Notes: a model not told the origin generated them from the letters alone. Positions 40,868 to 61,742 are shown, counted from the stretch's first letter. The stretch is 64,000 nucleotides of DNA from Gemmatimonas sp. (GCA_965279375.1 OZ257156.1:864001-928000); one strand, 5' to 3'. Program-made: numbers and translations.

Positions 40868-41085
40868 ATTGCGACCGGCGATCGGAGCGATTCGCGGAGC
40901 GATTCACGGGCCGCCATCCGGACAGGCGCTGTCTACCGCAACGCAAGGATAGTCGCCAGTGACATGAGCCGCCTTGGTCACTGGCTGCCATGCTGACGGG
41001 TGGGCACGAGACACAGATTCCGCCCGTGCGGCCCGACCGACCATCAGAGTGTATTCCTGCAGCTCGGCGGGTGCCGGTGCGGCCG

Positions 41086-41538: not shown

Positions 41539-41575
41539 CGCGCCTCTCGCCTCCGTCATAGAAGTCGTGCACGCC

Positions 41576-41667
41576 ACCTAACGCTGGCTTCTGCTGCGAG
41601 CGGAGCGCGTGATGCCGTGCGCCACGCTGTTGGTTGGTCCGCTCGTCAGCAGCAATCATCGTTCGAA
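41576..41667 (-). mobile_element. attC site A
   Basis: Plus strand acctaac..ctgctg.cgagcgga / tccgctcg-T-cagcag-C-aa..gttcgaa; two unpaired bases on one arm; R' = GTTAGGT on minus. Confidence 0.8.
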
Positions 41668-41731
41668 CCCGTGTAGGTGCTGGCGAATCGTGCGAACGGG
41701 CCGCCGCTGTTCAAGCTCCCTCAACTCTGCG

Positions 41732-43282: not shown

Positions 43283-43333
43283 CGCGATGGTGGTATGGGT
43301 TTGACGTGTGTAGCGCGTGAGTCGAGTGTGTTA

Positions 43334-46300: not shown

Positions 46301-46990
46301 CGTACCATCTGCGCCCACCTGCACCTGCTGAAAACCTCGCACTATTTTCTTCTTCTTCCAAGTACGTGTTTCCCAAAGCGACGCAAGTTTTTCGATCGCG
46401 AAGTCGGCAACTTTGTCGGCGGCTTTCTTCATGATCTTGACCACGACAAACTTGATGACTTTGCTGACGGGGCCGCGCCGTCCGGTTGCTGTCGCCGAAC
46501 TCTGGGTGGTAATGCGAAAGCGAAGTACGCCCTGTGGGCTCGACGAACGCTTTTTGTCGGTTGACTTTGCAGCTCTGCGCTTTCGTGCGCCGCGCATTCC
46601 TGTGCCGAGGATGTCACCGACCGCGAAACTCACGGCATCCGATGCATGACGTGCAATGACGACGTGCGTTTGGCGATCTGTCGGCTCGTATTCGAATGTG
46701 AGCGGTTGATCCTCCACGTTGCGCCGTGCTGGAAGCACCGCTTCGTGCGAGCTTACCATCTCGATTTCATTCGTGGCAAGCAGTGTCTTGACAAATGGGT
46801 CGATCCCGCTGTCGGCCCGTTGGCCTCGTCGCACTCGCCGTGCGCGTTCCGCGAGTGGTGCTGCGGAGATAAACCACGCACTGGTGCTCGTAATTGCACC
46901 TCTGCCCGAAGTACCTGATCTCTTCGTACTGGCGCGCTTGGTCGTTGATCGAGAGGCAACGGAGCGCTTGGGTCGGCGAGGCGAGGGCAT
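43334..46990 (-). CDS. Alpha/beta-hydrolase plus CHAT (caspase-like) protease multidomain protein
   Basis: FIHGTFS, THSRG, NDLVVP; CHAT LHFIGHG and FLNACE dyad intact. Confidence 0.85.
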   Translation of the reverse strand: MPSPRRPKRSVASRSTTKRASTKRSGTSGRGAITSTSAWFISAAPLAERARRVRRGQRADSGIDPFVKTLLATNEIEMVSSHEAVLPARRNVEDQPLTFEYEPTDRQTHVVIARHASDAVSFAVGDILGTGMRGARKRRAAKSTDKKRSSSPQGVLRFRITTQSSATATGRRGPVSKVIKFVVVKIMKKAADKVADFAIEKLASLWETRTWKKKKIVRGFQQVQVGADGTLSLVQLKNSRKLPEGRKLLFIHGTFSNFQGGFGALGKTRGADGQTFFDKVRATYGERIYAFNHFTVSETAEANGRDLMLALSTTNQEFDVITHSRGALVLRTILESAELAPLAKRFSVGNVVLVAGPNEGTPLASPDRWHLFTDWIGNVIDLFPDNPFTTGADFLVESVAWLAGKVGDVIPGLATMNPRGPLIDELQSLPHPAGTWSALASNHEPSEGVVARMVDVGVDGFFGMANDLVVPTRGGWRVGTPTMTIVGNDRVGCYGPGGNLRTNGPVDVTHTTFFNQTETVDFLARAVLGQPQGLPTMQLDAELPTKRDGRRGNGAMTSDARGAATPPINPPSTTLPPETDGNHPPRVSTVRPSRQSFLDEVLHLFIVSPLNALAMPKENDSDYGLSQMVANSTKGDTALLIASFRNARVIEPFRPTRGEARDRYQLIDNTHKRIKGYIDGNSRYKSLPSEEELRKYGALLFDSIFPGEVRRLYDTARAELKERRLNVCLTSTIGWVADKPWEFAFDPYEETFICTEEVNFIRNSITAVPADALGARSGKLRILVIAAQPVGAGALSIDEEISMVRSAFEPLIRAGLAEVQVEVDVTPQKLHELLSLTDVIGDRFDVLHFIGHGEFDETTGFGYLLFEDRSGRSHELRADIFRQIAAHRGVRLVFLNACETGTGFGRRHPNRVFDFSSGVAPMLVSGGVPAIVANQFSVLDVSATAFAQHFYWALSIGRTIGDAAREARVAVNYSIAGEAIDWAVPVLFARNPDDVLVPHADTSATAIARMTDLAPATTARRSLTRSTKPTIAIWDLNYVIPELNRVVQRLNDAQEVFVFERANLTAPLGTWRRSRQRNTQHAVLDAAEVETKLKPTLERLGVAQLCCITTMALWSDGKESLSASVSDDGRISIVSTGGRLEKMHAPYTIERFLANALAFSLSEVSTHSIGPKNCPGYYNNEEDIRWDAGPLELCRQCAGKIKKPTRRAAIKGILRAFD

Positions 46991-47315
46991 ATAGGGACCT
47001 CAGTGGGAAAGACCAAACATTTCGGGGGCAATTCGCGCAAGAACAGTGTTGCGATCTGTGAGTTCGCGCAATTCGGCAGCTGCCCAGTCGACGGCTTGCT
47101 TGAAGGATTCACTTCGCGCATTTCTCGCGACCTGATCAGGCAACGCCATTCGCGCGGTCGGTGACTGGCGGGCTGTTCAATACCGATCTGACGCCGTGGC
47201 ATCACCATCAATCGCAGTGGTCCGAGCGTCTCGCGCTGGCACGTTCCTTCCTCGGCGGCCTTCGGTGTTGAACGCGCCGTCTCCCTGCGACGCAGAAGAC
47301 CGGGTCCCATACACA

Positions 47316-47537
47316 GCGAACGTCGCGGAATCGTCCTTCGGCAGTTTGAAGAAGGAACGGGTAAAGAAGCACATCTATCGGAACGGCGAGCTCGCGACCG
47401 TGGAGATCGCAGACGATATCAACCGCTTCTTCAATTGCATACGGCGGCACGGTCACTTAGACGGGCTCAGTCCCGAGCGATTTGAAGCCGCTCACAAGTC
47501 CCGCTGCCGACGTGTCCACTAAGCGCTGGGAACTCCA
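47316..47537 (+). mobile_element. IS3-family remnant (transposase C-terminus and right inverted repeat)
   Basis: VAESSFGSLKKE..FFN..RRHGHLDGLSP..FE; end gtgtccactaagcgctgggaactcca-3'. Confidence 0.85.
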
Positions 47538-47676
47538 ATTCCTCCTCAATCATGACCCACGGCTCGCCGAGTGGACCCTCCTTCAGCGAGAAGCTAACGC
47601 CTCTGTGATAGGTATGTGCGCGATCTCCTGTTGTTCGATCATTGGGGCCAAGGCATTCTGGAAAGTCTGATACCAT
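47538..47676 (-). pseudogene. Probable cassette ORF truncated by the IS3 insertion
   Basis: Open frame just downstream of the attC-B core site (..FSLKEGPLGEPWVMIEEE) running into the IS end. Confidence 0.4.
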
Positions 47677-47714
47677 TCGAGAAACTCTAGCGTGGGTGGT
47701 ACCGTCTTAGGCCC

Positions 47715-47827
47715 ACCTAACGCTCGCGTTCTGTTGCAGCGCCCTTCAACAGGATGCGGCCAGCGAGCGCAGCGAGCAATAGGCCGCACTCCTTGAAAGC
47801 GCTCTCAACAGCAACGCAAGGTTAAGC
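47715..47827 (-). mobile_element. attC site B
   Basis: acctaac..gcgtt ctgttg..agcgc / gcgct..T-caacag-C-aacgc..gttaagc; long inner stem. Confidence 0.9.
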
Positions 47828-48068
47828 GGCGCTGGCGCGCACCCGCCCACCCCCGGATTGCGGGTTTCGCCCACTTACTCATCGGAGCGTCATTCCGGTG
47901 GTCACTGGACGGTGGTTCGAGGGCCTCGGCGCGCCCGATCCCCTGTTTTGCACTAGGCTCTTGAGTCGCATCCATATGTATACAGTTCGCGGCCTCCGTC
48001 CTCTAAGCCACCCTACTGCTTCTTCGTCGACCGGGTGCGATTCCGCTCTTTGGCCAGCCTCTAGCCGT

Positions 48069-50495
48069 TCAATCCAGTATGGGTGGGTAGGCAAGAGGGT
48101 CGGTGGAGGCCATCAGATCGTACACCGCCTGAAATACGCTCTCGGTGTTCGGCTTCGACATGTAGTCGCCGTCGCGGCCGTACGCAGGTCGATGCGCTGC
48201 CGCCGTGAGCGTTCGCGGGGCCGCATCCAGCCAGTGGAAGCCGCCTTGCCTTTCCAACACCTCTTGCATCATGTACGATGTCGCGCCGCCGGGCACGTCC
48301 TCGTCGAGGAAGAGGACACGGTTTGTTTTCTTCAACGACTCAACAATCGCGCAGTCGATATCGAACGGCAGCAACGACTGGACATCGATCACCTCTACGC
48401 TCACACCGGTGGTCGCAGCGAGAGAGTCCGCCGCCTCCAGGGCGACCTGACAGCACGCGCCGTACGTCACGACGGTCACGTCCTTCCCTTGCCGGATGAC
48501 CTCGACGCGGCCGATCGGCGTCTTCAGCTCACCGATGTTCAGCGGCATCCGCTCCTTCCGATAGTACCCGTTCAGGACCTCGACAACCACGGCCGGGTCC
48601 CCGGATTGGAGGAGGGAATTGTAGAACCCAGCCGCACGGGTCATGTCGCGTGGGACGAGCACGTACATTCCTCGCAAAAGGTGCACGATCGCCGCCATCG
48701 GTGAGCCCGAGTGCCAGACTCCGACGAGACGATGACCTCGTGTCCGCACGATGACTGGTGCTTTCTGTCCGCTCTTAGTGCGGTAGCGGAGCGACGCGAG
48801 ATCGTCGCTCAGGATCTGTAGCGCATAAGGCATGTAGTCGACGTACTGGATCTCTGCAATTGGACGAAGTCCACGCATCGCGAGGCCGATCGCCTGGCCA
48901 ATGATGGTGCACTCTCGGATACCGGTGTCCGCCACGCGACTCTCCCCGAAGCGAGCCTGCAGCCCCGCGAATCCTTTGTTGACGTCCCCGAGACGACCCA
49001 CGTCTTCGCCGAACGCGATGATACGTGGGTCGCGCGCGAGCGCGGCATCGAAACAGGCGTTCAGCACACGATGAGCATCAACGCCGCTCCCATCTCCGTA
49101 CACCGGTGCCACCGACTTCACACGCAATGCGGAGTCCGCGCCTTCCGCATAAAGGTGGGAGTCGTATTGCTCGCGGCTTGCCTCCCGCTGTTCCCTGACC
49201 CATCGCCGGAGCGGTTCGACAGCCGCAGTGTCGCATCCCCGGACAGCGACTAGGGCGCGGTGGGCCGTCGACGCAAGATCGCGACGCAGCGGCTCGGTGC
49301 AGGCAGCCACCGCGGCGCTTGCCGCGGCGAACTCTGCGTGGCCGTCGGGACATGCCGCACCAACCTCTTTCAACGCGGCAGTCAGCGACCGTGCCTCGGC
49401 CAGGATCGGAGCCTGGTAGTCATTCCATGCCTCGTCACGCTCCCGCCGCACGTACTCACGCTCCCCGCGCTCCAGCATCTCGAGGTCTTCCACCGACGCG
49501 AACCCGTCGGTGATGAGCCATGCGCGCATCCGCGCGAGGCAGTCATGCTCCTTCTCCCAGGTCAAGCGTTCAGTAGACTTGTAGCGCTCGTGGCTCCCAG
49601 TCGTCGAGTGACCGAGAGGTTGCGTTAGCTCGACCACATGCACGACTGCCGGCACGTGGTCCCGTCGCACCCCCGCGGCCGCGATGGCGAACGTGTCGAC
49701 AAGGGCCGGATAGTCCCAGCCGAGTACGGTCATAAGCTCGAGACCGCCTTTCCTGTTTGGCGTGCGACGGAATCCCTCTAGCAGCTCTGCGAGGTGCCCC
49801 TTTGTTAGCTGAAGCTCGTTCGGGACCGAGATGCCATAGCCGTCGTCCCAGACTGAGAGCAGCATGGGGACCTGCATGACGCCGGCGGCGTTGAGCGTCT
49901 CCCAGAACATCCCTTCGGCGCACGATGCATTTCCGATTGTACCGACGGCGATCTCGTCGCCGTCGCGCGAGAACCGCGTCATGGAGCGCAGCTCTGGCAA
50001 CGTCCGGTAGAGCTTGGATGCCTGTGCGAGCCCGAGAAGTCGAGGCATCTGTGCAGCCGTCGGCGAGATATCCGCGGAAGAATGGAAGTCATCAACAAGT
50101 GCCTTCCACTCGCCCGACTCGTCGAGCATGCGAGTGGCGAAATGAGCGTTCATGCTGCGACCCGCGGACGAGGGTTCGGCAACGACGTCGACGTGTCCGT
50201 ATAGTTGCGCAAAGAACTGACGGACGTCGAGCGCGCCGAGCGCGAGCATGAGCGTCTGGTCGCGGTAGTAGCCGGACCGGATGTCGCCAGGCCGCAGCGC
50301 GCGGGCCAAGGCTACTTGGGCGACTTCTTTTCCGTCTCCGAAAATCCCGAACATGGCACGTCCGGTTATGACCTCATCGCGGGCGACGAGGCTCAGCTGG
50401 CGGCTCCGGTAGGCGGTTCGGTAGTCCTCCAGCACGAGGGCCGGATCGAGTCCCTCCACCGCCCTCTGCTGGATAGTGCTCCCGACAAGTGTCAT
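48069..50495 (-). CDS. Fused alpha+beta E1 of a 2-oxoacid (probably branched-chain) dehydrogenase
   Basis: FGIFGDGKE, GYYRDQT, TPP-binding IGNAS..EG..WDDGYGIS, GEDVG, EIQYVDY, HSGSP. Confidence 0.9.
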   Translation of the reverse strand: MTLVGSTIQQRAVEGLDPALVLEDYRTAYRSRQLSLVARDEVITGRAMFGIFGDGKEVAQVALARALRPGDIRSGYYRDQTLMLALGALDVRQFFAQLYGHVDVVAEPSSAGRSMNAHFATRMLDESGEWKALVDDFHSSADISPTAAQMPRLLGLAQASKLYRTLPELRSMTRFSRDGDEIAVGTIGNASCAEGMFWETLNAAGVMQVPMLLSVWDDGYGISVPNELQLTKGHLAELLEGFRRTPNRKGGLELMTVLGWDYPALVDTFAIAAAGVRRDHVPAVVHVVELTQPLGHSTTGSHERYKSTERLTWEKEHDCLARMRAWLITDGFASVEDLEMLERGEREYVRRERDEAWNDYQAPILAEARSLTAALKEVGAACPDGHAEFAAASAAVAACTEPLRRDLASTAHRALVAVRGCDTAAVEPLRRWVREQREASREQYDSHLYAEGADSALRVKSVAPVYGDGSGVDAHRVLNACFDAALARDPRIIAFGEDVGRLGDVNKGFAGLQARFGESRVADTGIRECTIIGQAIGLAMRGLRPIAEIQYVDYMPYALQILSDDLASLRYRTKSGQKAPVIVRTRGHRLVGVWHSGSPMAAIVHLLRGMYVLVPRDMTRAAGFYNSLLQSGDPAVVVEVLNGYYRKERMPLNIGELKTPIGRVEVIRQGKDVTVVTYGACCQVALEAADSLAATTGVSVEVIDVQSLLPFDIDCAIVESLKKTNRVLFLDEDVPGGATSYMMQEVLERQGGFHWLDAAPRTLTAAAHRPAYGRDGDYMSKPNTESVFQAVYDLMASTDPLAYPPILD

Positions 50496-50512
50496 GATGG
50501 TCGTCCTTTTCG

Positions 50513-52978
50513 TTACGACACGATGTTCACAAGTACTGGCGAGACGTAGACCACGCGACGCGGTTCTCTTCCATTCAGGTGCCGCTGCACCACCTCGCTG
50601 GCTGCCGCCGCCGCTTTGGTCTCATCAGGCGCGAGACTCGCGTTGACGCGAATACGGTCTCGCACTCTTCCGTTGACCTGCACCACGAGGAGATGCGTCT
50701 CCGCTCGCACCGCGCTCTCGTCCACGGTAGGCCAGCGTTGGAGGTGCACCGAGTATGGCTTTCCCATTCGGCACCACAGTTCCTCGGCTATGTGCGGCAT
50801 GAGGGGTGCTAGCATGAGAACGAGCATGTCACACGCCTCGACCCATTCGTGCGTCCCCTCGAGTCCGTCGCGCTGAGCTTCGATGAGATCACTGGTGAAC
50901 TGCATGAGCGACGGCACGACGGTGTTGAATGCGAACCTGTCAAGGTCGTTGGTCACTGACAGTAGCGTACGATGCGCGCTGGCCTTGAGGGCGGTGCGAG
51001 CGGCCGCACTGGCCACCGGCTCCGTAGGATGCTCCCTGCGCGTCGCGAGCAACGCCCACACGCGCCGCACCCAGCGCGCGGAACCTTCAATGGCTTTTTC
51101 GTTCCATGGTCCCCCCTGGTCCCAGCGGGCGAACCATGCCAAGTACACGCGGACAACGTCTGCACCGTAGCGGTCGACGAGATCGTCCGGAGCGACCACG
51201 TTCCCCTTCGACTTCGACATCTTCGTCGCATCCGCGCCCAAGATCGGGCCTTGGTTGCGAAGCTGGAGCATCGGCTCGGGACCACTCGTGAGTCCGATGT
51301 CGCGAAGCGCCTTGTGGAAGAAGCGCGTGTAAATCAGGTGCATCGTCGCGTGTTCGACACCGCCAGTGTAGGTGTCGACCGGCATCCAGTAGGCGTACTC
51401 CTCCTTGGAGAACGGACCCGCATCGTCGTGCGGGCTCAGGTAGCGAAGGTGGTACCAGGATGAACAGACGAACGTGTCCATGGTGTCGGAATCCCGCTCC
51501 GCATCACCGCCGCAGCGCGAACACTGCGTCATCCGCCAAGTCGGGTGCAGTTTGAGAGGGCTTTCTCCAGTTGGGAGCCACTCCACGTCTTCGGGAAGGG
51601 TGACAGGCAGCTCACCGTCCGGAACCAGCACCGGACCGCACGACTGGCAGTGCACGACGGGAATGGGCGCTCCCCAGTACCGCTGCCGTGATACCAGCCA
51701 GTCACGGAGCCGATATTGTACAGTGCGGTGGCCGACGCCCTTGTTCTCGAGAAACTCGATGGTGCGACCGATTGCGTCGGCAGCCGAGGTTCCCGTGAGC
51801 GATCCCGAGTCCACCATGCGACCACGGCCGGTCCAGGGGAGCTTCGGACCCTTGGACGAGTCCGTGACATCGGTCGGCTGGAGCACCTGCCGGACCTTAA
51901 GTTCGTAGCGTGTCGCGAAGTCGAAATCCCGCTGGTCGTGCGCCGGCACACCCATTACCGCCCCAGTGCCGTACCTCGCGAGGACATAGTCGGCAACCCA
52001 GATCGGCACCCGGTCACCGGTCAACGGGTGGGTAGCAAAGGCGCCTGTATCGACGCCTGTCTTGACGCCGTCCGTCGATTCACGCTGAACGTCCGACTGG
52101 CGTAACGCGGCGGAAACATACGACATGACGGGATCGCGCTGGTCGACCTTCAGAAGCCGCGGAAGAAGCGGGTGCTCGGGGGCGATCGCGAGGAAGGTGA
52201 CGCCCCATAGTGTGTCCGGGCGCGTCGTGAACACTTCCAGCGATTCCCCGGCATCCGTCGCGAATCGAACGAGAGCTCCTTCGGACCGACCGATCCAGTT
52301 GGTCTGCGCAAGCTGCACGCGCTCGGGCCAATCCAAGCCTGAGAAGTCCAGCAGCTCTTCGGCGTATCGCGTCGTTCGAAAGAACCACTGCTCCAGTTCA
52401 CGCCGCGTCACGGGGGATTCGCAGCGTTCACAGATACGGTCGTCGGTGATAACCTGTTCGCGCGCTAGGGTCGTGTTGCACCCAGGACACCAGTCCACGG
52501 CGGCGCGCTTACGGTACGCAAGCCCGGCCTTGAAGAGCCAGACGAATAGTTGCTGTGTCCAGCGATAATACTCGGTGTCGGACGATACCATCTCGCGCCT
52601 CCAATCGAACATCGCGCCCATGCGCTGAAGCTGGCTGCGCATGCGATCGATGCTGGCGTAGGTCCACTGCGCCGGGTGCACGCCGTTCTTGATCGCGGCG
52701 TTTTCCGCCGGGAGCCCGAACGCATCGAAGCCCATCGGGAAGAGCACATTGAACCCCTGCATGCGCATGAACCTTGCCCGCATGTCGGACGGCACCATGG
52801 CATACCAGTGACCGATGTGGAGGGCGCCCGACGGATACGGCAGCATCGTGAGCGCAAAGTGCTTGGGACGCGTATGGTCGACGCGCGCACGATCGATGCC
52901 GTCCGCGGCCCAGCGCGCCTGCCAACGGGTCTCGACCTCTCCCGGCCGGTATTCTGATCTAATCTTCGCATCGACCAT
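50513..52978 (-). CDS. leuS: Leucine--tRNA ligase (probably an accessory copy)
   Basis: PYPSG.LHIGH, CP1 FTTRPDT and GTGAVMGVPAHDQRD, SRQRYWG, KMSKS. Confidence 0.97.
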   Translation of the reverse strand: MVDAKIRSEYRPGEVETRWQARWAADGIDRARVDHTRPKHFALTMLPYPSGALHIGHWYAMVPSDMRARFMRMQGFNVLFPMGFDAFGLPAENAAIKNGVHPAQWTYASIDRMRSQLQRMGAMFDWRREMVSSDTEYYRWTQQLFVWLFKAGLAYRKRAAVDWCPGCNTTLAREQVITDDRICERCESPVTRRELEQWFFRTTRYAEELLDFSGLDWPERVQLAQTNWIGRSEGALVRFATDAGESLEVFTTRPDTLWGVTFLAIAPEHPLLPRLLKVDQRDPVMSYVSAALRQSDVQRESTDGVKTGVDTGAFATHPLTGDRVPIWVADYVLARYGTGAVMGVPAHDQRDFDFATRYELKVRQVLQPTDVTDSSKGPKLPWTGRGRMVDSGSLTGTSAADAIGRTIEFLENKGVGHRTVQYRLRDWLVSRQRYWGAPIPVVHCQSCGPVLVPDGELPVTLPEDVEWLPTGESPLKLHPTWRMTQCSRCGGDAERDSDTMDTFVCSSWYHLRYLSPHDDAGPFSKEEYAYWMPVDTYTGGVEHATMHLIYTRFFHKALRDIGLTSGPEPMLQLRNQGPILGADATKMSKSKGNVVAPDDLVDRYGADVVRVYLAWFARWDQGGPWNEKAIEGSARWVRRVWALLATRREHPTEPVASAAARTALKASAHRTLLSVTNDLDRFAFNTVVPSLMQFTSDLIEAQRDGLEGTHEWVEACDMLVLMLAPLMPHIAEELWCRMGKPYSVHLQRWPTVDESAVRAETHLLVVQVNGRVRDRIRVNASLAPDETKAAAAASEVVQRHLNGREPRRVVYVSPVLVNIVS

Positions 52979-53029
52979 TGCGTTGTCCTCGTTTTTGCGT
53001 CGTGGCGCGCAGGATTCCCGTACGCCGAA

Positions 53030-54340
53030 TCAGGCGGCGAGCTGAGAGTCGTTGAGTGTGAGGCACTGGTAGGCCGCGTGGATCGTGGCCGCGTCCACGC
53101 CGCCCATGAGGCGTGCTTCGCGACAGAGACCACGAACGCACTCGCGGGCGATCGCTCGCGAATCGTCGTTGACGCGCTCTGCGTCCCACGTCGGTAGGAG
53201 CTCGTGCGACACCGCGACAACGCCGCCGCCGGAAACAATGGGATCGGGGATGAACACAATGCCAACGGCCGTGAACTCCTGAAGCAGCGCGTCGCCGCGA
53301 TGCTCGATCGAGCCGAGTTGGTCGTTGCCGGCGCCGAGGATCAGGCGAACGCGTGCGCCCGCGCGGCGAGCCGCGGCCAGGATCTCACCTCGGGTGCGCA
53401 GATCGCCGACGGGGCGCGTGCCTAGGAAATCGGTGCCTCCTCCGTTCGGGCTGACGACCTCGACCGTCGGATCTTCGAGCGCGGCAACCTCAGAGTCGAA
53501 GACGCTGCCACGCTCGACCAATCGGCGCAGCAGCGCCAGGTGGCGCTCTTCATCGACCTCGCCGCCGCGCGCCTTTGTGGCACGATAGAGACGATCCGCG
53601 GAATCGAGGGACGGATCGAGTTGCGGATCGAACACAACGACGTCGGCGCCAGCGCGATCGAGCAGGTACGCGAGAGGGAGACCAACCTTGCCGAGACCAA
53701 GAACGAGCACCCGAACCTCATCCAAGGATGTCTGGCCCTGCAGCTCCTCGATCGTCTCGAGCAGGCCCGCCTTCACGCCTTCCGCTGTCGCCTCACCAGT
53801 GTCACGTCCGCACTTGAGGCCGATCGTGTAATCGGTGAGGGAGTTCATCAGTTCCAGGTCCGCGTGACTCAGGCCCTGATCAAGCGAGCCAAGGTAGTCG
53901 CCAGCAATGAAGTTCAGGAGCGCCGCATGCGCGCGAAGGCGAGCCTCTCCCACGCCGGTGCCACCGGGGCCGAGTTTGTGCTCCGCAGGAACCCAGATCG
54001 TCCCCTTGCCTCCGGCCCACGAGTAGTGCCGCACGTCGGGTCCCAAGCGGCACGCCGCTCCATAGATGAGCGTCGTCTTGGCGTCCATGGCCCGCGCGAG
54101 CGCCCCAGCGGTGCGCAAGGCATGGGTGTGATCAGGGCACTGAACGATCCGGGTGCCACCAAGACCGACGCGGTTACCCCCCAACGCGGTCTTCGAGACG
54201 ACGACCGAGCTGTAGATCCGGGCGTCGGGGGCGACCGAAGACCCGTTGAAGGCTTCGAAAAGGACGTAGCCGCCATCGAATCGCGCGGGACCTCGAAGTG
54301 TGAGATCCCCCTGCTGAACTTCGCGGTAGTGCATCGACAT
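53030..54340 (-). CDS. Divergent Glu/Leu/Phe/Val dehydrogenase (leucine dehydrogenase-like)
   Basis: LGGTR, LARAMDAK, GGKG, ATAEGV, GLGKVG, GAGND, PD.IVSGGGV. Confidence 0.8.
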   Translation of the reverse strand: MSMHYREVQQGDLTLRGPARFDGGYVLFEAFNGSSVAPDARIYSSVVVSKTALGGNRVGLGGTRIVQCPDHTHALRTAGALARAMDAKTTLIYGAACRLGPDVRHYSWAGGKGTIWVPAEHKLGPGGTGVGEARLRAHAALLNFIAGDYLGSLDQGLSHADLELMNSLTDYTIGLKCGRDTGEATAEGVKAGLLETIEELQGQTSLDEVRVLVLGLGKVGLPLAYLLDRAGADVVVFDPQLDPSLDSADRLYRATKARGGEVDEERHLALLRRLVERGSVFDSEVAALEDPTVEVVSPNGGGTDFLGTRPVGDLRTRGEILAAARRAGARVRLILGAGNDQLGSIEHRGDALLQEFTAVGIVFIPDPIVSGGGVVAVSHELLPTWDAERVNDDSRAIARECVRGLCREARLMGGVDAATIHAAYQCLTLNDSQLAA

Positions 54341-54431
54341 GGCCTTTCTCTCGCACGAAAAGGGTGAGCCCGAGCAAAGGACGGACGGCAGGCCAGCCGC
54401 ATCTGCGCAGGCGGTCAATCTACTTACCGCG

Positions 54432-54460
54432 ATAATATATCATATTTATCTTCATTGCAA
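54432..54460 (-). promoter_or_regulatory. Sigma70-type promoter for the dehydrogenase-leuS-E1 operon
   Basis: TTGCAA-N17-TATTAT on the minus strand, in an AT-rich patch. Confidence 0.65.
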
Positions 54461-54529
54461 GAGTTTATATCGATTAAAATAGCCTAAGGTATCGAGTTGA
54501 GTGCGTTCCGCGGGGAGGCGTCGTTGGGT

Positions 54530-54559
54530 TTGACGGATTATCTATGGAGCTCGTAGTAT
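54530..54559 (+). promoter_or_regulatory. Sigma70-type promoter for the RSH-STAND / STAND-wHTH pair
   Basis: TTGACG-N18-TAGTAT; GGAGAG RBS before ATG 54605. Confidence 0.55.
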
Positions 54560-54604
54560 TCCTTCGGGGGATTCATAGACGGGCCGATAATCGTTGGAGA
54601 GAAC

Positions 54605-57600
54605 ATGATGAATACCGAGCCGAACGGAGATAGATTTCACACCCCGTTGATGCGTGGCGCCGGGACCGGTGCGGTCCTCGCCGTTCCGGCAAGCCGTGTG
54701 GAGTGGGATCACTGTCAACGCCTTGCGGCGATCCTTCACCAGCGGTTCGACGATCCCGTGCTCACCGAAGCGGGGTTGCTGCACGGCATAGGTGCCCACG
54801 CAGTTGAACGACTCGGCGCGAGCGGAAGGCCAGAGGTCGTCGCGATTCTCGAGGATGTCGAAAAGCTTCGCGCGCTTGAGTTCCGTGACGAGGATCTGAC
54901 GGGAAGTGCTCTTCGAAACGTCTTGCCGCTTCTACGGGATCCGCGGTCCGGCGTGCTGCTGGCGTTCGACCAACTGGACCACGTCGACCCCGATCAATCC
55001 TTTAGACGATGGAGCGCAAAGTTCCACCGTCTTCCCGAGATCGGCGTGGACGCGCTTCCGAGAGAGACCGCGCATCTCGACCCGTTAGTGGAACTCGGGT
55101 CCTATCCACGATTTCTTCGCCGCGTGGTGGCTCCGGTCGCCGCACTCAGTGGATTTTGGCGCGAGCGAAATGCTCTGGATGACTGCGCAACCCTGATTTG
55201 GGACCCCGATCGTGCTAAGGACATCTCCATCGAGGTGAGGCGAGCATCGGGGGCGTGTCGACGCTTGGTTGGGGAAATTGAGGCTTCCTTTGGCGATGGA
55301 GCCGACGCTTCGGTGCTTTGGGAGTGGCGGCACCTCGGTCGGCTGGATCGAGAACTTCCGCGGTCGAACGATCAACTTGCCAGCGCTTTCGATGCACGCA
55401 TCGGAACCCTCGGCTTCGTCACGGTCGTGTGCGTGGACGAGGACGAGTGCTACCGGCTTCTAGGCCGCATTCATCGTCACTTCGAGGGGAGGGGGGAGGC
55501 GTTCCGGGACTATATCGGCAACAAGAAGGGCGACGACTACCGTGCGCTCCACACGCGCGTGGGTCGCCAAGGAGCGGGACGCGGTCCGCGAGAGATCTCC
55601 ATCCGCTTGATTTCCCGAAGTGATGACTTGAAACGAAGCCAGCCGGCTCGACGGTGGCATGATCTGCGCCCGACGAATCCCGCCGGTCCGATGCGCGTGT
55701 TCACCCTCCACGGCGACCCGGTCGATCTTCAGCCGGGTGCTACTGTGGCTGCGTTCGCGGTCGAGGTACACGACGCTCTGCTATTCTACGCGATCGGCGC
55801 CCGGGTCAACCGTCGAACGGTCGAGCTAAACTACAAGTTGTCGCCCGGCGACGTCGTTGAAGTGCTAAAGAGCGAGCGGCTGCAGCCGCTTCCGTCTACT
55901 TGGAAGACTTGGATCCCCGAGATTCTGCCGCAGTCGACGACTTCGTTAAGGGAGTCGACGCCGAACCCAACGCATCGAAGAGTGCGAAAGGCGTATAAAC
56001 GCTTGTTCGAGAGCGAACTCGGCCGGCAGGGATACGCTGAGCTGGAACGACATCTCATACGAGAAGGAATCCGTCGGGTTCCCAGCATGGACGAGATCGG
56101 CCGATTCATTCTTGCGGCAGTGAACTCTTTGTCGGGAGCGCCCCGCAGCGCATGGCTGGACGCGGATTGGTGGTTGCAGCAGATCGGGGCGCTGGTCTAC
56201 AACTCAAAAGACTTCGACCCACTCTTCGAAGTTCAACTCACGAAGGATTTCCAAGGTCTTCTCTTCGAGAAAGTTCGAGACTTGGTCGCCGCCAGCCAGC
56301 TCTGTGAGGAGCTCGGTATCGATCCGCGGACGGCTGGTACTTTCTCTCTGGTACGATGCTCGGCCTGCCATCCTACGACGAGCGACCAAATCCTCGTCGA
56401 ACGGACATACTCGCTACTCACGCTGCACAGGGCCGGTGCTGACTGCGCCAAGGACGCTAGGCCGGTCGACGCCATTGGTCCCTTCGAAGATCAGTTCCTC
56501 TGGATTGAAGGACCGAATAGAGTGGGGTTTGCGGCGACTGTCGCCGAAACATTTTCGAAACACGGTATCGACATCGAGGAGATCATCGCACGAGCGATAA
56601 ATCAGCAGCGAGCTGCCGTCAGGGTGCAGCTGGCGCCTCTGCCGGCTACTCGACTGAAGCAGGTCCTCGAAACATTGCGATCGAACCATGGACTGAAGGT
56701 GACCGACCCGGACGCCGGCCAAGCGACCAGTGAAGAGCGAAATCACTTTCCTCCACGGTCAATGCGCTCGGCCACCCCGCTGACAGATTTCGTTGACTCG
56801 CCATACCGCGTCGGTGACGCACTCTATCAGGACGCGGATTTCTACGGTCAGCAAAGCTCTCTGACGAAACTAAGGACCATCTTTGAAGGCCTGTTGGCGA
56901 ACCCACGTGGTCACGGCCGTCGTTGCTCGATACTGGGGCCGATTAAGGTGGGGAAGACATCGCTGGCGCTCGCGTTCCTCCGCAGGATGTCGAAGGACCA
57001 CGATAGGGTGACGACGATTTATGAGCGGGCGACCCAAACAATGACGTGGCAGGAGATGGAGGCGAATCTTCGAGAGACGATCCTGAAAGAATCTGCCGAG
57101 GTTGCCGCACGCAACAATCGTTCTTTCGACCTTCCACCCGACATCGCACGCAACACGAACATGTACACGGTCGTCAATTCTGTGCGCGAACGTACCGGCG
57201 GTCCAATGATTATCGTGATCGACGAAGCACCGTGGCTGTTCAAAACCTCGCACGAGGGCGGAGAGGCATCCCGACTCGCAGAGGTGGTAGCGCAGCTGCT
57301 TCGAGCCGGCGTGATGTTGATCTGCGTTGGCCCCAAAGTCGGATTCGAGCGTATCCCACCGCGCTTGAGGCCGATCCTTCGCGATGGGACCGATGTCTCC
57401 GTCGACAAGCTGACGCTTCTTGAGGTTCGGGACCTGCTCTTAGCGCGACAGAAGGGAGGTCGATACTCCATCCTGATCGAATCCGGCATTGCCGAAGCTG
57501 TCATGAAAGCAACAAGAGGGAATCCGTTCTGGACAGCCGCGCTCGCAGACAAAATGTGGGAGCTGAACCATGAACGGTACGACAAGACCGTTTTTGAGAA

Positions 57601-57946
57601 CGCGCAAGCTCGTCTGGCGCGTGACAAAATAAAGTTCTACGACCGCTGGGATGATGAGGATCAGTCTTGGCATCCAAATTCGACGATCAAAGGAATTGTC
57701 CGCAAGCTCCTGCAGGAGCTTGCGAAAGAGACTCCTCCCACGGACAAGATGGTTCGAATGCGTACCCAGACTGCTCTCCGCCGTCTGGCGGATGATTCAA
57801 TTCCCTCCGCTGACGAGCTACTCAAAGAACTCGAAGATCTTGGAACCATAGAGCTAAACGCTGAGAGCGCCGGCAAGGATCAGATGTGGTCGCTCGCGGC
57901 ACCAATTTTGGCGCTTCATCTTCGAGAGCATCTTCACAATGCGTGA
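54605..57946 (+). CDS. Degenerate long RelA/SpoT homologue (HD*-SYNTH*-TGS-ZFD-ACT) fused to a STAND-like P-loop ATPase
   Basis: AGLLHG; ECYRLLGRIH..FRDYIG..YRALHT..EISIR; TGS RVFT..GAT..FA..VH..GARVN..L..GDVVEV; RCSACHP..HR; ACT GPNRVG; GPIKVGKTS, IVIDE, GNP. Confidence 0.85.
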   Translation: MMNTEPNGDRFHTPLMRGAGTGAVLAVPASRVEWDHCQRLAAILHQRFDDPVLTEAGLLHGIGAHAVERLGASGRPEVVAILEDVEKLRALEFRDEDLTGSALRNVLPLLRDPRSGVLLAFDQLDHVDPDQSFRRWSAKFHRLPEIGVDALPRETAHLDPLVELGSYPRFLRRVVAPVAALSGFWRERNALDDCATLIWDPDRAKDISIEVRRASGACRRLVGEIEASFGDGADASVLWEWRHLGRLDRELPRSNDQLASAFDARIGTLGFVTVVCVDEDECYRLLGRIHRHFEGRGEAFRDYIGNKKGDDYRALHTRVGRQGAGRGPREISIRLISRSDDLKRSQPARRWHDLRPTNPAGPMRVFTLHGDPVDLQPGATVAAFAVEVHDALLFYAIGARVNRRTVELNYKLSPGDVVEVLKSERLQPLPSTWKTWIPEILPQSTTSLRESTPNPTHRRVRKAYKRLFESELGRQGYAELERHLIREGIRRVPSMDEIGRFILAAVNSLSGAPRSAWLDADWWLQQIGALVYNSKDFDPLFEVQLTKDFQGLLFEKVRDLVAASQLCEELGIDPRTAGTFSLVRCSACHPTTSDQILVERTYSLLTLHRAGADCAKDARPVDAIGPFEDQFLWIEGPNRVGFAATVAETFSKHGIDIEEIIARAINQQRAAVRVQLAPLPATRLKQVLETLRSNHGLKVTDPDAGQATSEERNHFPPRSMRSATPLTDFVDSPYRVGDALYQDADFYGQQSSLTKLRTIFEGLLANPRGHGRRCSILGPIKVGKTSLALAFLRRMSKDHDRVTTIYERATQTMTWQEMEANLRETILKESAEVAARNNRSFDLPPDIARNTNMYTVVNSVRERTGGPMIIVIDEAPWLFKTSHEGGEASRLAEVVAQLLRAGVMLICVGPKVGFERIPPRLRPILRDGTDVSVDKLTLLEVRDLLLARQKGGRYSILIESGIAEAVMKATRGNPFWTAALADKMWELNHERYDKTVFENAQARLARDKIKFYDRWDDEDQSWHPNSTIKGIVRKLLQELAKETPPTDKMVRMRTQTALRRLADDSIPSADELLKELEDLGTIELNAESAGKDQMWSLAAPILALHLREHLHNA

Positions 57947-59306
57947 TCCGACGCAGATGGGTGGCGGAGCCCCTGCAAATTCTCCGCCAGCTGAGTTCAA
58001 CGGTAACCCGTTCTTCTTCGACGAGCTGATAACGCCGTTGAGCCGGACACTGAAAGAACAAGGCCGATACCTCCGCGGATTTAGGGGGGCAGGAAAAACT
58101 CACATCCTGCGAGCGTTCTCGGTGATCGCCGAATCGATGCTTCTGATGAACCGAAGCCTGAGGGATCGGCCAATCATCTCACCGCTCGATCGGTCGGCGG
58201 AAGAAATCGACATCGTGCTGCGTGACATCGCGCGATCGAAAGGATCGAAGGGAGTTGTCCTCATCGACGACCTAGATCTTCTGCTAGAGCACTCGCAAAA
58301 AGATGGCTTGGACCGCTGGGACTCGCTTTCCGACTCACTGGAGCGGATTTTCACCAGACTTGAGAATGTGCACATTCTCTTCACGACCACCCGCAATCCA
58401 GTTGACATCGGAACGCGGAATCAGATGCTCTCCAACTTCTTGCAAAATGCTCGGGAGCAGCCGCTTGAGCCTTGGAAAACCGCAGAAGAGTGGCACCGAA
58501 AAGTGCGGGATATTCTGGGAGCAAGTCTCGGAGGGGACGCGTGCAGCACTGACGTCGTGGCGAAAGGCATAGTCATACTGAGCGGAGGTCATCCGACCCT
58601 CATCGGTGCCGCCGTGCGGCGGATTCGGAAAACGATGTCGCAGTCGAGCGGATGGATCCCCCCGACCAGGCTTGCGCCCGTGCTCAAGGAGATCCCGCGC
58701 CTTCTCACCGACGACGGCCTCCCGTCTATTAGACGTCGCATCTTAGCGCTGGCCCCAGACCAGCGTAGGGCGCTGGCAGATCTGGCAGGGCATAGCGTAG
58801 GCTACCGTGCGCTCCTCGAGAGGCGAATCGGCGAGGAGCTCACAAATGCAGGGCTTGTACGCAGGCATGACGGCCATCGCGAAGGTCAGCGCGAGTATTC
58901 GATTCCGTCCCCGCTAATTCGGGAAGAGGCATCTGCCGAGCTTTCTTCCCGGGTGGACGATTTCGTTTTGCTTGACCCGTCGACAAGTAATCCAGACCAA
59001 GAAGGCGCGGTGGTCGCCGGTTCGGGATCGACGACTCGCATCGTCAGTCTAAGCGGTCGTTCATGGCAACTCGCGCGTGTGCTCTATGACAACGCGGGGA
59101 AACCGCTGGCGCCCGACGAACTAAATCGACTGCTCGGAGAATTGGTGACCGAAACAGGAAAGCCATTCGTCGTTCACGCCGCGCTCCAACGACTCAGGTC
59201 TTCATTGAAGAACGAGCTGCCGAATCTACTACAAACACATCGCGGCAGCGGATACCTGTTTGACGTACCGCAGCTGCGAGATTACTCCAGGCGACCCAGT
59301 GCTTGA
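57939..59306 (+). CDS. STAND-like ATPase with C-terminal OmpR-type winged-helix DNA-binding domain
   Basis: NPF, GFRGAGKT, LIDDLD, GGHP; C-terminal LS...QL..L..NAGK..EL..RLR..L..QTHRGSGY. Confidence 0.8.
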   Translation: MRDPTQMGGGAPANSPPAEFNGNPFFFDELITPLSRTLKEQGRYLRGFRGAGKTHILRAFSVIAESMLLMNRSLRDRPIISPLDRSAEEIDIVLRDIARSKGSKGVVLIDDLDLLLEHSQKDGLDRWDSLSDSLERIFTRLENVHILFTTTRNPVDIGTRNQMLSNFLQNAREQPLEPWKTAEEWHRKVRDILGASLGGDACSTDVVAKGIVILSGGHPTLIGAAVRRIRKTMSQSSGWIPPTRLAPVLKEIPRLLTDDGLPSIRRRILALAPDQRRALADLAGHSVGYRALLERRIGEELTNAGLVRRHDGHREGQREYSIPSPLIREEASAELSSRVDDFVLLDPSTSNPDQEGAVVAGSGSTTRIVSLSGRSWQLARVLYDNAGKPLAPDELNRLLGELVTETGKPFVVHAALQRLRSSLKNELPNLLQTHRGSGYLFDVPQLRDYSRRPSA

Positions 59307-59735
59307 CATAGCGCCGTGCACGAGACCCTTCAGAAAGTCTGCTGAGAACGAGGCCCAAATCATTGGTGGCGGGCGCTACACCGGTCGCTGCGGCGCGGTT
59401 GTGGTTTGTCGACCCTCGCCCCATCGAGCCTACCTTAGCAATTCCGCGCTCACTTTCTTGGCGGCGATTTTGGCCAGCTCGCTTGGAACGCGAGACTTCG
59501 AAACGCCTAACCGTCGCTGTTCGGCTCTGCCTGTGCCCTGCGACTAGACCCCGTGCGAGCGGGAATCCGGTACGAGTCCCGCTCGCCCGCGACGTGAAGG
59601 TGTTCTACTATCCTGGCGTTACAATAGAGGTGGTTTTGCGCTGCTGGGGGTGCGAGAGGACGACGGGCCGGTATTCGCGCACCGTAGGACGTCCCGAACG
59701 TGGGCTTCGCTATGTCTGTTACGGTGAATGGCGCC

Positions 59736-59845
59736 GCCTAACGATTGCGTTCGCTTGCAGGGCCCTTCCATAGGATGCCGACAGTGAGCACAGCGAACAG
59801 TCGGCAGTCCGTGAAGGCCCTGTCAAGCGCAACGCCGGGTTAGAC
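59736..59845 (-). mobile_element. attC site C
   Basis: gcctaac..gcgtt cgcttg caggg / ccctg-T-caagcg-C-aacgc..gttagac; lies 20 nt after the serine hydrolase stop. Confidence 0.92.
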
Positions 59846-59864
59846 CGCAGCAACGCTGACGGTG

Positions 59865-60989
59865 CTAGTTGGGCGAGAGCGCGGCGAGGACCCGCCGTAA
59901 GATGTCCTCGGAGCGGCGCTGGCCGTAGGGGCGGCCGTAGGCGCTGGAGCTGATCGCCAGCACTGCGTCGTACGCGGGGATGACGTAGATCTTGTTGCCG
60001 CCGTTGCCCGACGCGAAGTGCACCGTGACGTGGCGGTCGCCGAGCGCATAAGTCTTCGTGTACCACAGGTAGCCATAGCTGTCCGCGTAGCGGTCGACCG
60101 CGCCGATGGACACGGAAGGGGCGAGGGCGTGGGCAATCCAGGCGCTGTCCACGAGTTGTTGCCCACCGGCACGCCCGTGGCGCAGCACCAACTCGCCAAT
60201 CGCGACCATATCCCGCACGCGGATCGACAGATTGCCTTGGCCCACCCCTTCGCCCCGCGGCCCGCGACGCCACGCAAATCGGGGCACGCCGAGCGGCCGA
60301 AACAGGACGCGGTTGGCGAAGTCCGCCAGCGGCGCCTGCGCCTGTTGCTCGACCACCCGCCCCGCGAGGAAGGCCGTGAGCGAGGAATAGACGTAGCGCT
60401 CGCCCGGGGGCGACGCCATCGGGACCGCGCGGACGAAGGCCATCCAATCCGGACTGTCGTCGAGACGGGTCTCATTTCCGCGCGCCAGCGAGTCCTCGTC
60501 GTCGGCGTCGAGTCCGGCGCGCATGGTAAGGAGATCGCGGAGACGAATGCGCTGCTGCGCGGGGGTCAGACTCCCTGGCAGGAGCGCGCCCAGGGGAGCG
60601 TCGAGCGTCTGGAGTGCCTGCGGTCCGAGGGCGATGCCGACCAGCAGCGCGGTAATGCTCTTGGTCGCCGACCGGATATCGTGCAACGTGGCGACCGCGT
60701 CGCCATTGAAGTACTGCTCGGCGACGCGTTGGCCATGCTGCTGCACGACCACGCCCTTCAGATCGCGGACCGAGTCCGCGCGATAGGACTGCAGGACGCG
60801 ATCGAGCGCCGGGCGGACCGCGCGCGCCGCGCGTTGGTGGGCCGTGTCGCTCGCCGGCACCCGTCGCCGCACGAGCGAATCACGCACTTGGGCGTGCAGT
60901 GGCTGGGATGACAATCCGCACCACAGGACGAAGCCCAGCACGACACGCGCACAGCGCAGGCGAGGTTCGACGCGGCGAAGGGTAGGCAT
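59865..60989 (-). CDS. Serine hydrolase, beta-lactamase family, gene cassette
   Basis: SATK, LLTMRAG, YVYSS, YGYLW, ASGNGG; flanked by matching cassette ends. Confidence 0.9.
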   Translation of the reverse strand: MPTLRRVEPRLRCARVVLGFVLWCGLSSQPLHAQVRDSLVRRRVPASDTAHQRAARAVRPALDRVLQSYRADSVRDLKGVVVQQHGQRVAEQYFNGDAVATLHDIRSATKSITALLVGIALGPQALQTLDAPLGALLPGSLTPAQQRIRLRDLLTMRAGLDADDEDSLARGNETRLDDSPDWMAFVRAVPMASPPGERYVYSSLTAFLAGRVVEQQAQAPLADFANRVLFRPLGVPRFAWRRGPRGEGVGQGNLSIRVRDMVAIGELVLRHGRAGGQQLVDSAWIAHALAPSVSIGAVDRYADSYGYLWYTKTYALGDRHVTVHFASGNGGNKIYVIPAYDAVLAISSSAYGRPYGQRRSEDILRRVLAALSPN

Positions 60990-61028
60990 GCTCGCTCGGA
61001 CGTGCGCGCCGACGGAAAAGTTTGAAGA

Positions 61029-61059
61029 GCTGCGGTCTAACCCGCTTTCACCTGCACCC
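61029..61059 (-). mobile_element. Core site / 3' half of an att site opening the first cassette
   Basis: Minus strand GTGCAGGTGAAAGCGG-GTTAGACCGCAGC; no partner arm found upstream. Confidence 0.65.
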
Positions 61060-61183
61060 CTCAACAGAGCGAATCAATATCGCTCCAACCCTCGGCATGA
61101 CGACTGTAATCGCGCGGCAGTCGGCCCACATCGCACACGCCCGTTATCGCGCAGTCGTCGGATCCTGCTCACGGCGCAAATTC

Positions 61184-61633
61184 TCAGTCACCTGCCCCAG
61201 GCACAACTCTCCACCCCGCATCCAACAACGGAACCGTCGCCGCCGCCGGCCCTCCGTCACGCGCACGCCCATGAATCTCCGCGCGTAGTACTGCCCCCGG
61301 CGACAGCAACACTGCTTGTATGAGCTCCTTCGCAACGCCGCCGAGCGGCACCTTCGCACGCCGCGACCACGGTGACGGCGGTCCGCCAGCGTACTGGCCG
61401 GCGTTGATGTACACGAACCGCCCCGCCGGTGGCCCCTGCACCTCGGGGCCCTTCAACACGAGCACACCGTCCGCGCGTACTACCGCTTCCACACGCAACT
61501 CGAACGTGACGCTATCGTCTGCGACGTGCATGGGCTCCACCAGCTCGAATCGTCCGCGCTGCATGCGCAGTTGGACCTCGGGATGTGGCGCACGCACCAC
61601 CACCTGCAACGTCAACGTGTCGGCCATCGTCAT
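61184..61633 (-). CDS. DUF5990 family protein
   Basis: GPEVQGPPAGRFVYINAG..WSRRAKVPL..GGPAAATV. Confidence 0.8.
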   Translation of the reverse strand: MTMADTLTLQVVVRAPHPEVQLRMQRGRFELVEPMHVADDSVTFELRVEAVVRADGVLVLKGPEVQGPPAGRFVYINAGQYAGGPPSPWSRRAKVPLGGVAKELIQAVLLSPGAVLRAEIHGRARDGGPAAATVPLLDAGWRVVPGAGD

Positions 61634-61742
61634 TCCTGTCGATGTGCGAGAAACTGACTTCGCAGCGAGCACCCTTGCGACCAATTCTCGTGGCGAGTCG
61701 CTAAACCTCTCTTTCCCATCGCCGCGAATCGAGCGCCGTTCG

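Follow-up and report, generated by a model that had tools for sequence, protein, structure and literature searches.

What does a RelA-type protein do once its catalytic residues are lost, an ATPase has been added to its C-terminus and its gene faces an operon of leucine-type genes? To our knowledge, RelA-type proteins are known only as alarmone enzymes, and the question is raised by a locus of Gemmatimonas sp. (GCA_965279375.1, OZ257156.1:864001-928000; the window hereafter, meaning the whole 64,000-nucleotide stretch analysed, with positions counted from its first letter). Its five genes, together called the cassette here, lie between positions 48069 and 59306. On the plus strand, a STAND ATPase carrying a pseudo-RelA/SpoT homologue (RSH) half (1113 aa, 54605-57946; the sensor) is followed by a partner STAND-like ATPase with a C-terminal OmpR/PhoB-type winged helix-turn-helix (wHTH) (455 aa, 57939-59306; the partner), and the two open reading frames (ORFs) share an 8-nt overlap. 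On the minus strand, a tight operon with intergenic gaps of 51 and 17 bp encodes an ELFV-family amino-acid dehydrogenase (462 aa, first gene, 53030-54418), an intact accessory leucyl-tRNA synthetase (LeuRS; 821 aa, 50513-52978) and a fused 2-oxoacid dehydrogenase E1 alpha/beta protein (808 aa, last gene, 48069-50495). The original prediction for this DNA had described two overlapping ATPase genes transcribed divergently from a dehydrogenase gene, leuS and an E1 gene, and ORF listing together with Pfam and NCBIfam scans confirmed all five at the places given. As set out below, the sensor and its partner are a conserved family in which the wHTH ATPase is an obligatory companion (5/5 loci), and we give a probability of roughly 45% to the reading that a sensor of tRNA charging drives transcription of protective amino-acid or tRNA cargo.

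Anatomy and spread of the sensor

The sensor matched four Pfam models, namely RelA_SpoT (weakly, 1.9e-7), TGS (1.6e-10), ACT (2.9e-4) and AAA_16 (1.8e-8; 35.5 bits against a cut-off of 32.6). In a MAFFT alignment with six genuine Rel proteins, one of them the 726-aa enzyme encoded by this genome, the sensor family was collinear with the real enzymes across HD, SYNTH, TGS, AH, ZFD and RRM/ACT. The approximate domain limits, in residues, are pseudo-HD 30-200, pseudo-SYNTH 201-345, TGS 360-425, a helical region 430-575, ZFD 578-625, RRM/ACT 628-700, ATPase 745-935, a helical region with a GxP module 936-1015 and a winged helix (WH) 1016-1113. An AlphaFold (AF2) model built on the family alignment had a mean predicted local distance difference test (pLDDT) value of 83; in Foldseek about 715 of its columns aligned to ribosome-bound RelA (5kpv/5iqr, E 4e-19), and the model also matched SpoT and Rel structures (7qpr, 6yxa). 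The last ~400 aa instead matched the archaeal AAA+ proteins 2qen (TMt 0.73) and 2fna (0.66) as well as Orc1/Cdc6 (0.45-0.50). Residues G778, K784, S786, D873 and E874 of the Walker A (GxxxxGK[ST]) and Walker B (hhhhDE) motifs were invariant in an alignment of 46 family sequences, as was G972 within TxGNPxW, the helical GxP module after the ATPase, and relatives of the sensor matched the nSTAND1 and ATPase_2 models. By these motifs, the C-terminal part is predicted to be an Orc/Cdc6-STAND-type P-loop ATPase with a GxP module and a winged helix. The modelled structure presents the whole protein as a fossil long RSH, in which the complete RelA fold is kept and fused to a switch ATPase.

Catalysis appears to have been lost from this fold. 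The HD dyad reads HG in the sensor (LLHG), and at the Asp position 35/46 family sequences have Gly and one has Asp; the EDT motif, an acidic motif downstream of the HD dyad, is absent. In the synthetase region, the motifs RxKxxxS..K, DxxxxR and EIQIRT are replaced across the family by WEW[HR]H.., [CA]G.VTV.C and x[IV]x[VI]R[IL], and the alignment shows a deletion of the helix found after EIQIRT in active enzymes. The RSH model TIGR00691 gave the sensor 71.6 bits against a cut-off of 499. With both hydrolase and synthetase residues gone, the RSH half is, to judge from the alignments, a pseudoenzyme, so that it would make no guanosine penta- or tetraphosphate ((p)ppGpp). Family records are labelled 'TGS domain-containing', 'HD domain-containing', 'AAA family ATPase', 'GTP pyrophosphokinase' or 'hypothetical', and with the synthetase residues gone, 'GTP pyrophosphokinase' is a misleading label. 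In a more distant clade (P0163, P0169, P0170, P0174 and P0175) the HD domain is better preserved and its HD dyad kept; the members of this clade have lost the synthetase residues too.

The half that reads tRNA in RelA has fared differently. TGS is the most conserved domain of the sensor (mean column identity of 0.42, vs 0.20-0.32 elsewhere), and the ZFD signature C585, C588, P590 and H608 is invariant in the 46 sequences together with three TGS residues. Natural short forms keep only the part from TGS through STAND (G009, 750 aa, and several others), and at least one of the listed short forms is a partial record. The original prediction had called the RSH part a pseudoenzyme that keeps TGS, ZFD and ACT/RRM and is fused to a P-loop switch ATPase; the alignments with Rel proteins and with the family bear out the first point, and the intact Walker A and B motifs the second.

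The fusion belongs to a sizeable and diverse family. With the sensor as query, a full HMMER scan covering 1.84 billion representatives returned 2432 matches at E<=0.001, of which 117, the query among them, reached E<=1e-30; among the 116 non-self matches, 101 were at least 1000 aa long and aligned nearly end to end at 24-32% identity. Since over 100 proteins of other organisms can be aligned with the sensor from end to end, the fusion is not a chance event. A word-index homologue search found ordinary RelA/SpoT only, at ~26% identity over a quarter of the sensor. Named sources of family members are Gemmatimonadota, Acidobacteriota, Caldilineaceae and Myxococcota. Within sampled genomes the family profile was rare and patchy (2/401 in the window's own phylum and 2/401 in its own family), and in the phylum of genome G424 the single positive among 401 sampled genomes was the centre genome itself. 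A tblastn comparison of the sensor family with 72,556 plasmids gave no match, and a search with a 7-row family alignment found no relatives in viral contigs. The locus search with the same 7-row alignment yielded two genome loci and one metagenome locus. Separately, the family profile reached, through the ATPase only, a defence island (L023, G039:C17:1-11839) in which a 1275-aa nSTAND1 ATPase with a C-terminal PRTase-CE lies beside HNH, AbiEi/AbiEii and DndB-like genes.

The partner ATPase and the facing cargo

The partner gave a Trans_reg_C match of 5.4e-7 (30.0 bits, above the Pfam cut-off of 26.2) and an AAA match, which agrees with the wHTH that had been foreseen for it. An alignment from five loci contained a Walker A motif (GxRGxGKT), a Walker B motif (LLIDD), a GGHP block and a conserved C-terminal block of OmpR type (..QRL....GxGYRF). 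The AF2 model of the partner was of low confidence (pLDDT 60.5 overall, ~75-80 in the wHTH, where the topology is sheet-3 helices-hairpin), and its Foldseek matches to NB-ARC and ORC, at template modelling (TM) scores of 0.16-0.30 from a low-confidence model, are suggestive only. BLASTP detected no significant similarity between the partner and the sensor ATPase.

Genomic context was available for five loci: the window, a Thermoanaerobaculia metagenome-assembled genome (MAG; L010), an Acidobacteriota MAG (L011), a metagenome contig (L024) and the congener G009 (L022). A partner homologue lies immediately 3' of the sensor gene in all five, split by a frameshift in L011, and in all five the upstream neighbour of the sensor gene is divergent. 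The sensors of the window and of G009 are only 24% identical and were therefore acquired separately. No model in PADLOC, PHROG or NCBIfam names the pair, which is thus both conserved and unnamed in these collections; the original prediction had likewise recognised no named system in this architecture.

The AT-rich divergent control region between the two gene sets (54419-54604, 186 bp) has a promoter-like site each way, found by a consensus scan: TTGCAA-17-TATTAT on the minus strand (54460-54432) and TTGACG-18-TAGTAT on the plus strand (54530-54559). This spacer contains two of the three sigma-70-like matches in the scanned 12.5 kb. A direct-repeat operator was looked for in the spacer and none was found; it holds only two short palindromes and one TTTAT pair, the latter seen by eye. 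Rfam and tRNA scans of the island gave no matches. At the other end, a terminator-like hairpin follows the partner gene on the plus strand (59382-59401) in the consensus scan, in which the regional count of such sites is not above that of shuffles. The G+C content of the window is ~65% and falls to 57-60% at 42-48 kb and at 56-60 kb.

The facing operon of the window is made of intact, recognizable enzymes. The LeuRS exceeds the TIGR00396 equivalog cut-off by a wide margin (907.6 vs 548.4 bits) and carries the HIGH and KMSKS motifs as well as the CP1 editing motifs TTRPDT and AHDQRD. Its identity to the genome's other LeuRS is only 44%. All 25 congeneric genomes have a single LeuRS, of the other type, at 42-48% identity; because the congeners hold only that type, the cassette LeuRS is an acquired, strain-specific extra. 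The housekeeping LeuRS of the genus (L002, G000:C1:2383723-2386143) reads HVGN where the cassette copy has HIGH. The dehydrogenase matches ELFV_dehydrog (PF00208, 7e-7) in Pfam, and its best NCBIfam match is the ScyB model (4e-15). Among solved structures it comes closest to Leu, Phe and Trp dehydrogenases (3e-12 to 7e-9; LeuDH 6acf, 2.8e-12), and in alignment with the L011 homologue the GGTR, GGKG and Rossmann GxGxxG motifs are retained. The E1 protein matches E1_dh, Transket_pyr and Transketolase_C in Pfam, and among solved structures E1 beta (1e-45 to 1e-49) and E1 alpha (7.6e-12). Homologues of it, at 57-67% identity, occur in 6/350 other genomes of the phylum that were searched. A conserved dehydrogenase-LeuRS-E1 trio was considered and dropped, as the E1 homologues stand alone in the five loci examined; their standing alone implies that the trio was put together in this cassette and is no old unit.

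What faces the pair differs from locus to locus. In L011 it is a 318-aa protein without assignment and a ScyB-like ELFV dehydrogenase, which has 27% identity to that of the window and, at 2.4e-58, does not reach the cut-off of the family. The cargo of G009 consists of (i) a membrane di-iron protein of the FA_desaturase family, whose only NCBIfam match is the L-arginine hydroxylase GntB (9e-21, below cut-off), and (ii) a 258-aa protein with a B3_4 domain (Pfam, 1.7e-10), for which the canavanyl-tRNA deacylase CtdA is the closest solved structure (9e-5). L024 has a 771-aa protein, for which there is a cyclase-like lead only (Atlas score 0.90), and a cNMP-binding PP2C phosphatase. In L010 there are two proteins of no assigned family, one with membrane helices by eye. 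The cargo is thus themed on amino acids or aminoacyl-tRNA in 3/5 loci (window, L011 and G009), a small count made post hoc. For the original expectation that cargo elsewhere would also be linked to amino acids, the outcome is mixed but favourable: it held for two of the four other loci (L011 and G009) and failed for the remaining two (L024 and L010). Adjoining the Thermoanaerobaculia pair are genes for T2SSE/VirB11-like and VirB4/TraG-like ATPases (L010, 15327-19568), and from these genes that pair may be riding on a conjugative element.

Variable cargo invites the thought that the adjacency is incidental, the ATPase pair acting elsewhere and the leucine-type genes being passengers of the same insertion. 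The cargo does differ in every locus, and close E1 homologues do occur without the pair. Yet a divergent neighbour lies across a short spacer in 5/5 loci, the same two attC sites enclose the pair together with its cargo, three of the five cargo sets touch amino acids or aminoacyl-tRNA, and in L024 and L011 the third-position G+C content (GC3) is low in both pair and cargo against high-GC3 flanks. We therefore regard a merely incidental adjacency as very improbable.

The same enzymes might instead form a miniature biosynthetic cluster, in which the dehydrogenase and a thiamine diphosphate (ThDP) enzyme would make a non-canonical amino acid or a LeuRS-directed antimetabolite, the extra LeuRS (in G009, the tRNA deacylase) would confer self-resistance, and the ATPase pair would be the regulator, perhaps a starvation-responsive one. 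ScyB is the best NCBIfam match of both dehydrogenases (window and L011), and a dehydrogenase next to a ThDP enzyme mirrors the logic of ScyB/ScyA. G009 pairs an amino-acid-hydroxylase-like enzyme with a CtdA-like deacylase, and stand-alone tRNA deacylases have been described as marking clusters of 'one tailoring enzyme + regulator + resistance', for example an AlaX deacylase with a regulator, a transporter and an Fe/alpha-ketoglutarate dioxygenase (sections of PMC13149037). Against a producer cluster, the cassette has no transporter or exporter, its E1 belongs to a phylum-native family found alone in 5/5 other loci examined, and there are only two enzymes, with nothing that points to a product. 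On balance, we hold this explanation to be improbable.

What the pair may sense and switch

Starting from what was observed (the anatomy, the lost catalytic residues, a pair that is conserved while its cargo varies, and a mobile setting), we infer a ligand, a protein contact, a DNA target and a purpose for the cargo as follows. When tRNA charging fails, through starvation, an aminoacyl-tRNA synthetase (aaRS) inhibitor or an amino-acid analogue, the RSH half would engage deacylated tRNA, either on stalled ribosomes or free. This engagement would release the switch ATPase of the sensor; sensor and partner together would bind the AT-rich spacer, and binding would turn on the facing cargo operon. 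In the window, the second LeuRS could restore charging of Leu-tRNA, and the dehydrogenase and E1 could deaminate and decarboxylate a leucine-like antimetabolite. The G009 cargo, a hydroxylase-like and a tRNA deacylase-like protein, would by analogy fit the same idea for another amino acid, and it agrees with published cases in which resistance or editing genes adjoin enzymes that tailor amino acids (PMC10018355, PMC13149037).

A number of observations weigh against this mechanism. A sensor bound to the ribosome and acting on DNA would need a relay. In RelA, a TGS histidine reads the 3' end of the tRNA; at this position no more than 29/46 family sequences have His, and 12/46 have Asn. The dead synthetase has gained the WEW[HR]H motif (residues 239-243, 55319-55333), with each Trp present in 45/46 sequences; such near-invariance hints at a new binding function and a ligand other than tRNA. 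ACT domains, moreover, are able to bind free amino acids. On the cargo side, in two of the five loci (L024 and L010) there is no visible link to amino acids or tRNA, and the E1 homologues lay beside none of the other four genes in 5/5 loci examined. When aligned to 1um9_A, the E1 protein also has GNA..DD in place of the ThDP motif GDG..NN (GDG-X(~26)-NN). This variant is kept in 6/6 fused E1 homologues of the phylum, and the metal-ligand positions look swapped; because it is conserved in all six, the E1 protein may still be active.

Two of these points, the retained ACT fold and the near-invariant WEW[HR]H of the dead synthetase, would be expected if the sensing were of a different kind, with the ACT and pseudo-synthetase pockets binding a free amino acid, an analogue or a nucleotide and the pair working as a conventional STAND activator gated by a ligand. 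Branched-chain amino acids are bound by the ACT domains of some Rel proteins, as the original prediction had also stated. Short forms that lack the whole N-terminal half nevertheless have the same partner, and conservation is highest in TGS and the zinc finger, the parts that in RelA make contact with tRNA and rRNA. We consequently rate such ligand gating as quite improbable, below the producer cluster, and prefer the sensing of tRNA charging.

How does the proposed device compare with what is known? Relative to long RSH proteins (RelA, Rel and SpoT), the sensor has the same domain order and fold over ~720 residues but lacks the catalytic residues and part of SYNTH, and it has gained a C-terminal P-loop ATPase and WH. 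MalT and AfsR couple a P-loop switch ATPase to an HTH or wHTH and are expected to oligomerise on ligand and to activate an adjacent operon. The coupling of such an ATPase to a DNA-binding domain is shared here, whereas the sensor and the DNA-binding domain are divided between two ATPases, and sensing falls to a dead stringent factor, not to TPR or sugar-binding repeats. Joining a STAND switch to an HTH is a known logic; the dead-RSH sensor and the two-protein layout are not known. Full-text literature searches for the domain combination of the sensor returned nothing relevant, and no published description was found. The main texts of two RSH surveys (PMC3153485 and PMC7229694) contain none of the words 'ATPase', 'AAA' or 'NTPase', and in the available part of Kaur et al. 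2020 (PMC7159879) TGS is mentioned only as an RNA-binding effector domain.

Reuse of a translation component as a sensor has a precedent in Gcn2, where a pseudo-HisRS domain turns a translation enzyme into a sensor of uncharged tRNA or stalled ribosomes (PMC11363354). Gcn2 is a eukaryotic kinase acting on eIF2alpha, and it has no homology to the sensor family. Self-resistance aaRSs and stand-alone tRNA deacylases such as CtdA are found beside amino-acid enzymes (PMC10018355, PMC12449066, PMC13149037), and those clusters share with the cassette an extra charging or fidelity gene next to enzymes for free amino acids; they use ordinary regulators, and the available sections of the same three papers report no cluster that has an RSH-derived sensor.

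A likeness in logic also exists to the T-box. T-box leaders and attenuators switch on aaRS or backup aaRS genes when tRNA is uncharged. The proposed logic is the same, but those elements are cis-acting RNAs; the cassette would reach the same end in trans, through proteins that it carries from place to place. In its fullest form, the idea is of a protein counterpart of the T-box: a dead stringent factor would dock on stalled ribosomes or deacylated tRNA, fire a STAND relay and switch integron-borne cassettes each tailored to one amino acid (leucine here, arginine-like in the congener), thereby defending translation against antimetabolites or aaRS inhibitors. We consider this elaborate version unlikely in its entirety. 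Were the tRNA-charging reading true, it would (i) add a second, ppGpp-independent output to the stringent-response sensor and provide a handle on (ii) the control of accessory aaRS and tRNA-editing genes on mobile elements, (iii) the content of very large integron cassettes and (iv) natural resistance to aaRS-directed antibiotics and amino-acid antimetabolites.

Mobile context

The original prediction had placed all five genes inside one mobile unit, and two lines of evidence uphold this: attC-type repeats at both ends, and the absence of the region from congeners. In the congeners G165 and G835, a fatty-acid desaturase gene (window 39.0-40.0 kb) directly adjoins the phosphoenolpyruvate (PEP) carboxylase gene (61.7 kb onward), which marks 39970-61740 as a 21.8-kb insertion. 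Using an nhmmer profile of the genome's own repeat, we found a left attC-type site on the plus strand at 47713-47832 (R'' ACCTAAC; R' GTTAAGC at 47821-47827; E 5.8e-32), which folds into a hairpin of -57.4 kcal/mol (z -3.3), and a right one on the same strand at 59730-59849 (R'' GCCTAAC; R' GTTAGAC at 59839-59845; E 1.3e-30), also with a hairpin. The two copies of this ~120-bp repeat are ~80% identical. A degenerate third copy lies at 40839-40957 (+), and in the G009 variant an attC of the same type is found 3' of the partner gene.

The genome holds 130 copies of the repeat, 122 of them in one minus-strand array at 1248086-1393520 with a spacing of 0.5-3.4 kb, and an integron integrase (1246027-1246965, +; TIGR02249, 384 bits vs a cut-off of 265) stands beside it. 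The five genes are one attC-bounded unit of 11.9 kb outside this main array. The usual integron cassette is about 0.5-1.5 kb and carries one promoterless ORF; the present one is atypical, with 11.9 kb, five genes and its own divergent promoter-like sites, against a maximal spacing of 3.4 kb in the main array. By its end sequences, the unit nonetheless has the boundaries of an integron cassette, and mobility by IntI is predicted. We read the whole as a self-contained, horizontally mobile regulatory cassette, made of a sensor, an output ATPase and a locus-specific divergent operon, and give its proposed response to failed tRNA charging just short of an even chance.

A mobile, patchily distributed locus with STAND proteins may also serve phage defence or abortive infection, with the dead RelA detecting phage damage to tRNA or translation and the STAND pair unleashing harmful cargo (a leucine drain or rewired charging). 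The integron-type cassette setting, the STAND architecture, the patchy distribution (2/401 in the phylum and 2/401 in the family) and the variable cargo would all suit this role, as would a neighbouring cassette with DUF7379-CHAT and MBL-fold proteins that have weak PADLOC matches. Integron cassettes have been reported to encode phage defence (10.1101/2024.07.02.601719). In PADLOC-DB 2.0, by contrast, the sensor matched only mad8 (0.0028) and the partner, dehydrogenase, LeuRS and E1 matched nothing; there were no PHROG matches for the five genes and no relatives in viral contigs. The cargo is made of intact housekeeping-type enzymes, without nucleases, pores or NADases, and a transcription-factor wHTH would be a slow output for an abortive response. 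The toxSAS/CapRel and Avs systems share RSH or STAND parts on mobile, patchy loci. toxSAS lack the C-terminal sensor half and are active as synthetases, and Avs carry nuclease or other killing domains; the sensor, in contrast, has the C-terminal half and dead catalysis, and no PADLOC model fits. A defence role is accordingly, in our estimate, improbable, on a par with the producer cluster, and the tRNA-charging sensor remains the preferred reading.

Other features of the insertion and of the genome may be recorded here. The adjoining attC-bounded unit (40957-47713, 6.8 kb) encodes a 1218-aa DUF7379 and CHAT protein (PADLOC SAVED_CHAT, 4.6e-13) and a 516-aa protein of the metallo-beta-lactamase (MBL) fold with weak LmuA (1.5e-9) and Avs1a matches, and it also contains an rve_2 transposase fragment (47196-47522); by these matches it looks like a defence-type cassette. 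Outside the window, the array and its integrase (G000:C1:1246027-1393520) make up a very large sedentary chromosomal integron, and isolated attC-type sites occur elsewhere in the genome at 109649, 316898, 318310, 673924 and 3705120. At the right end of the insertion (59865-61684) are genes for beta-lactamase-fold and DUF5990 proteins, for which the closest DNA matches in congeners are found at other places of those genomes.

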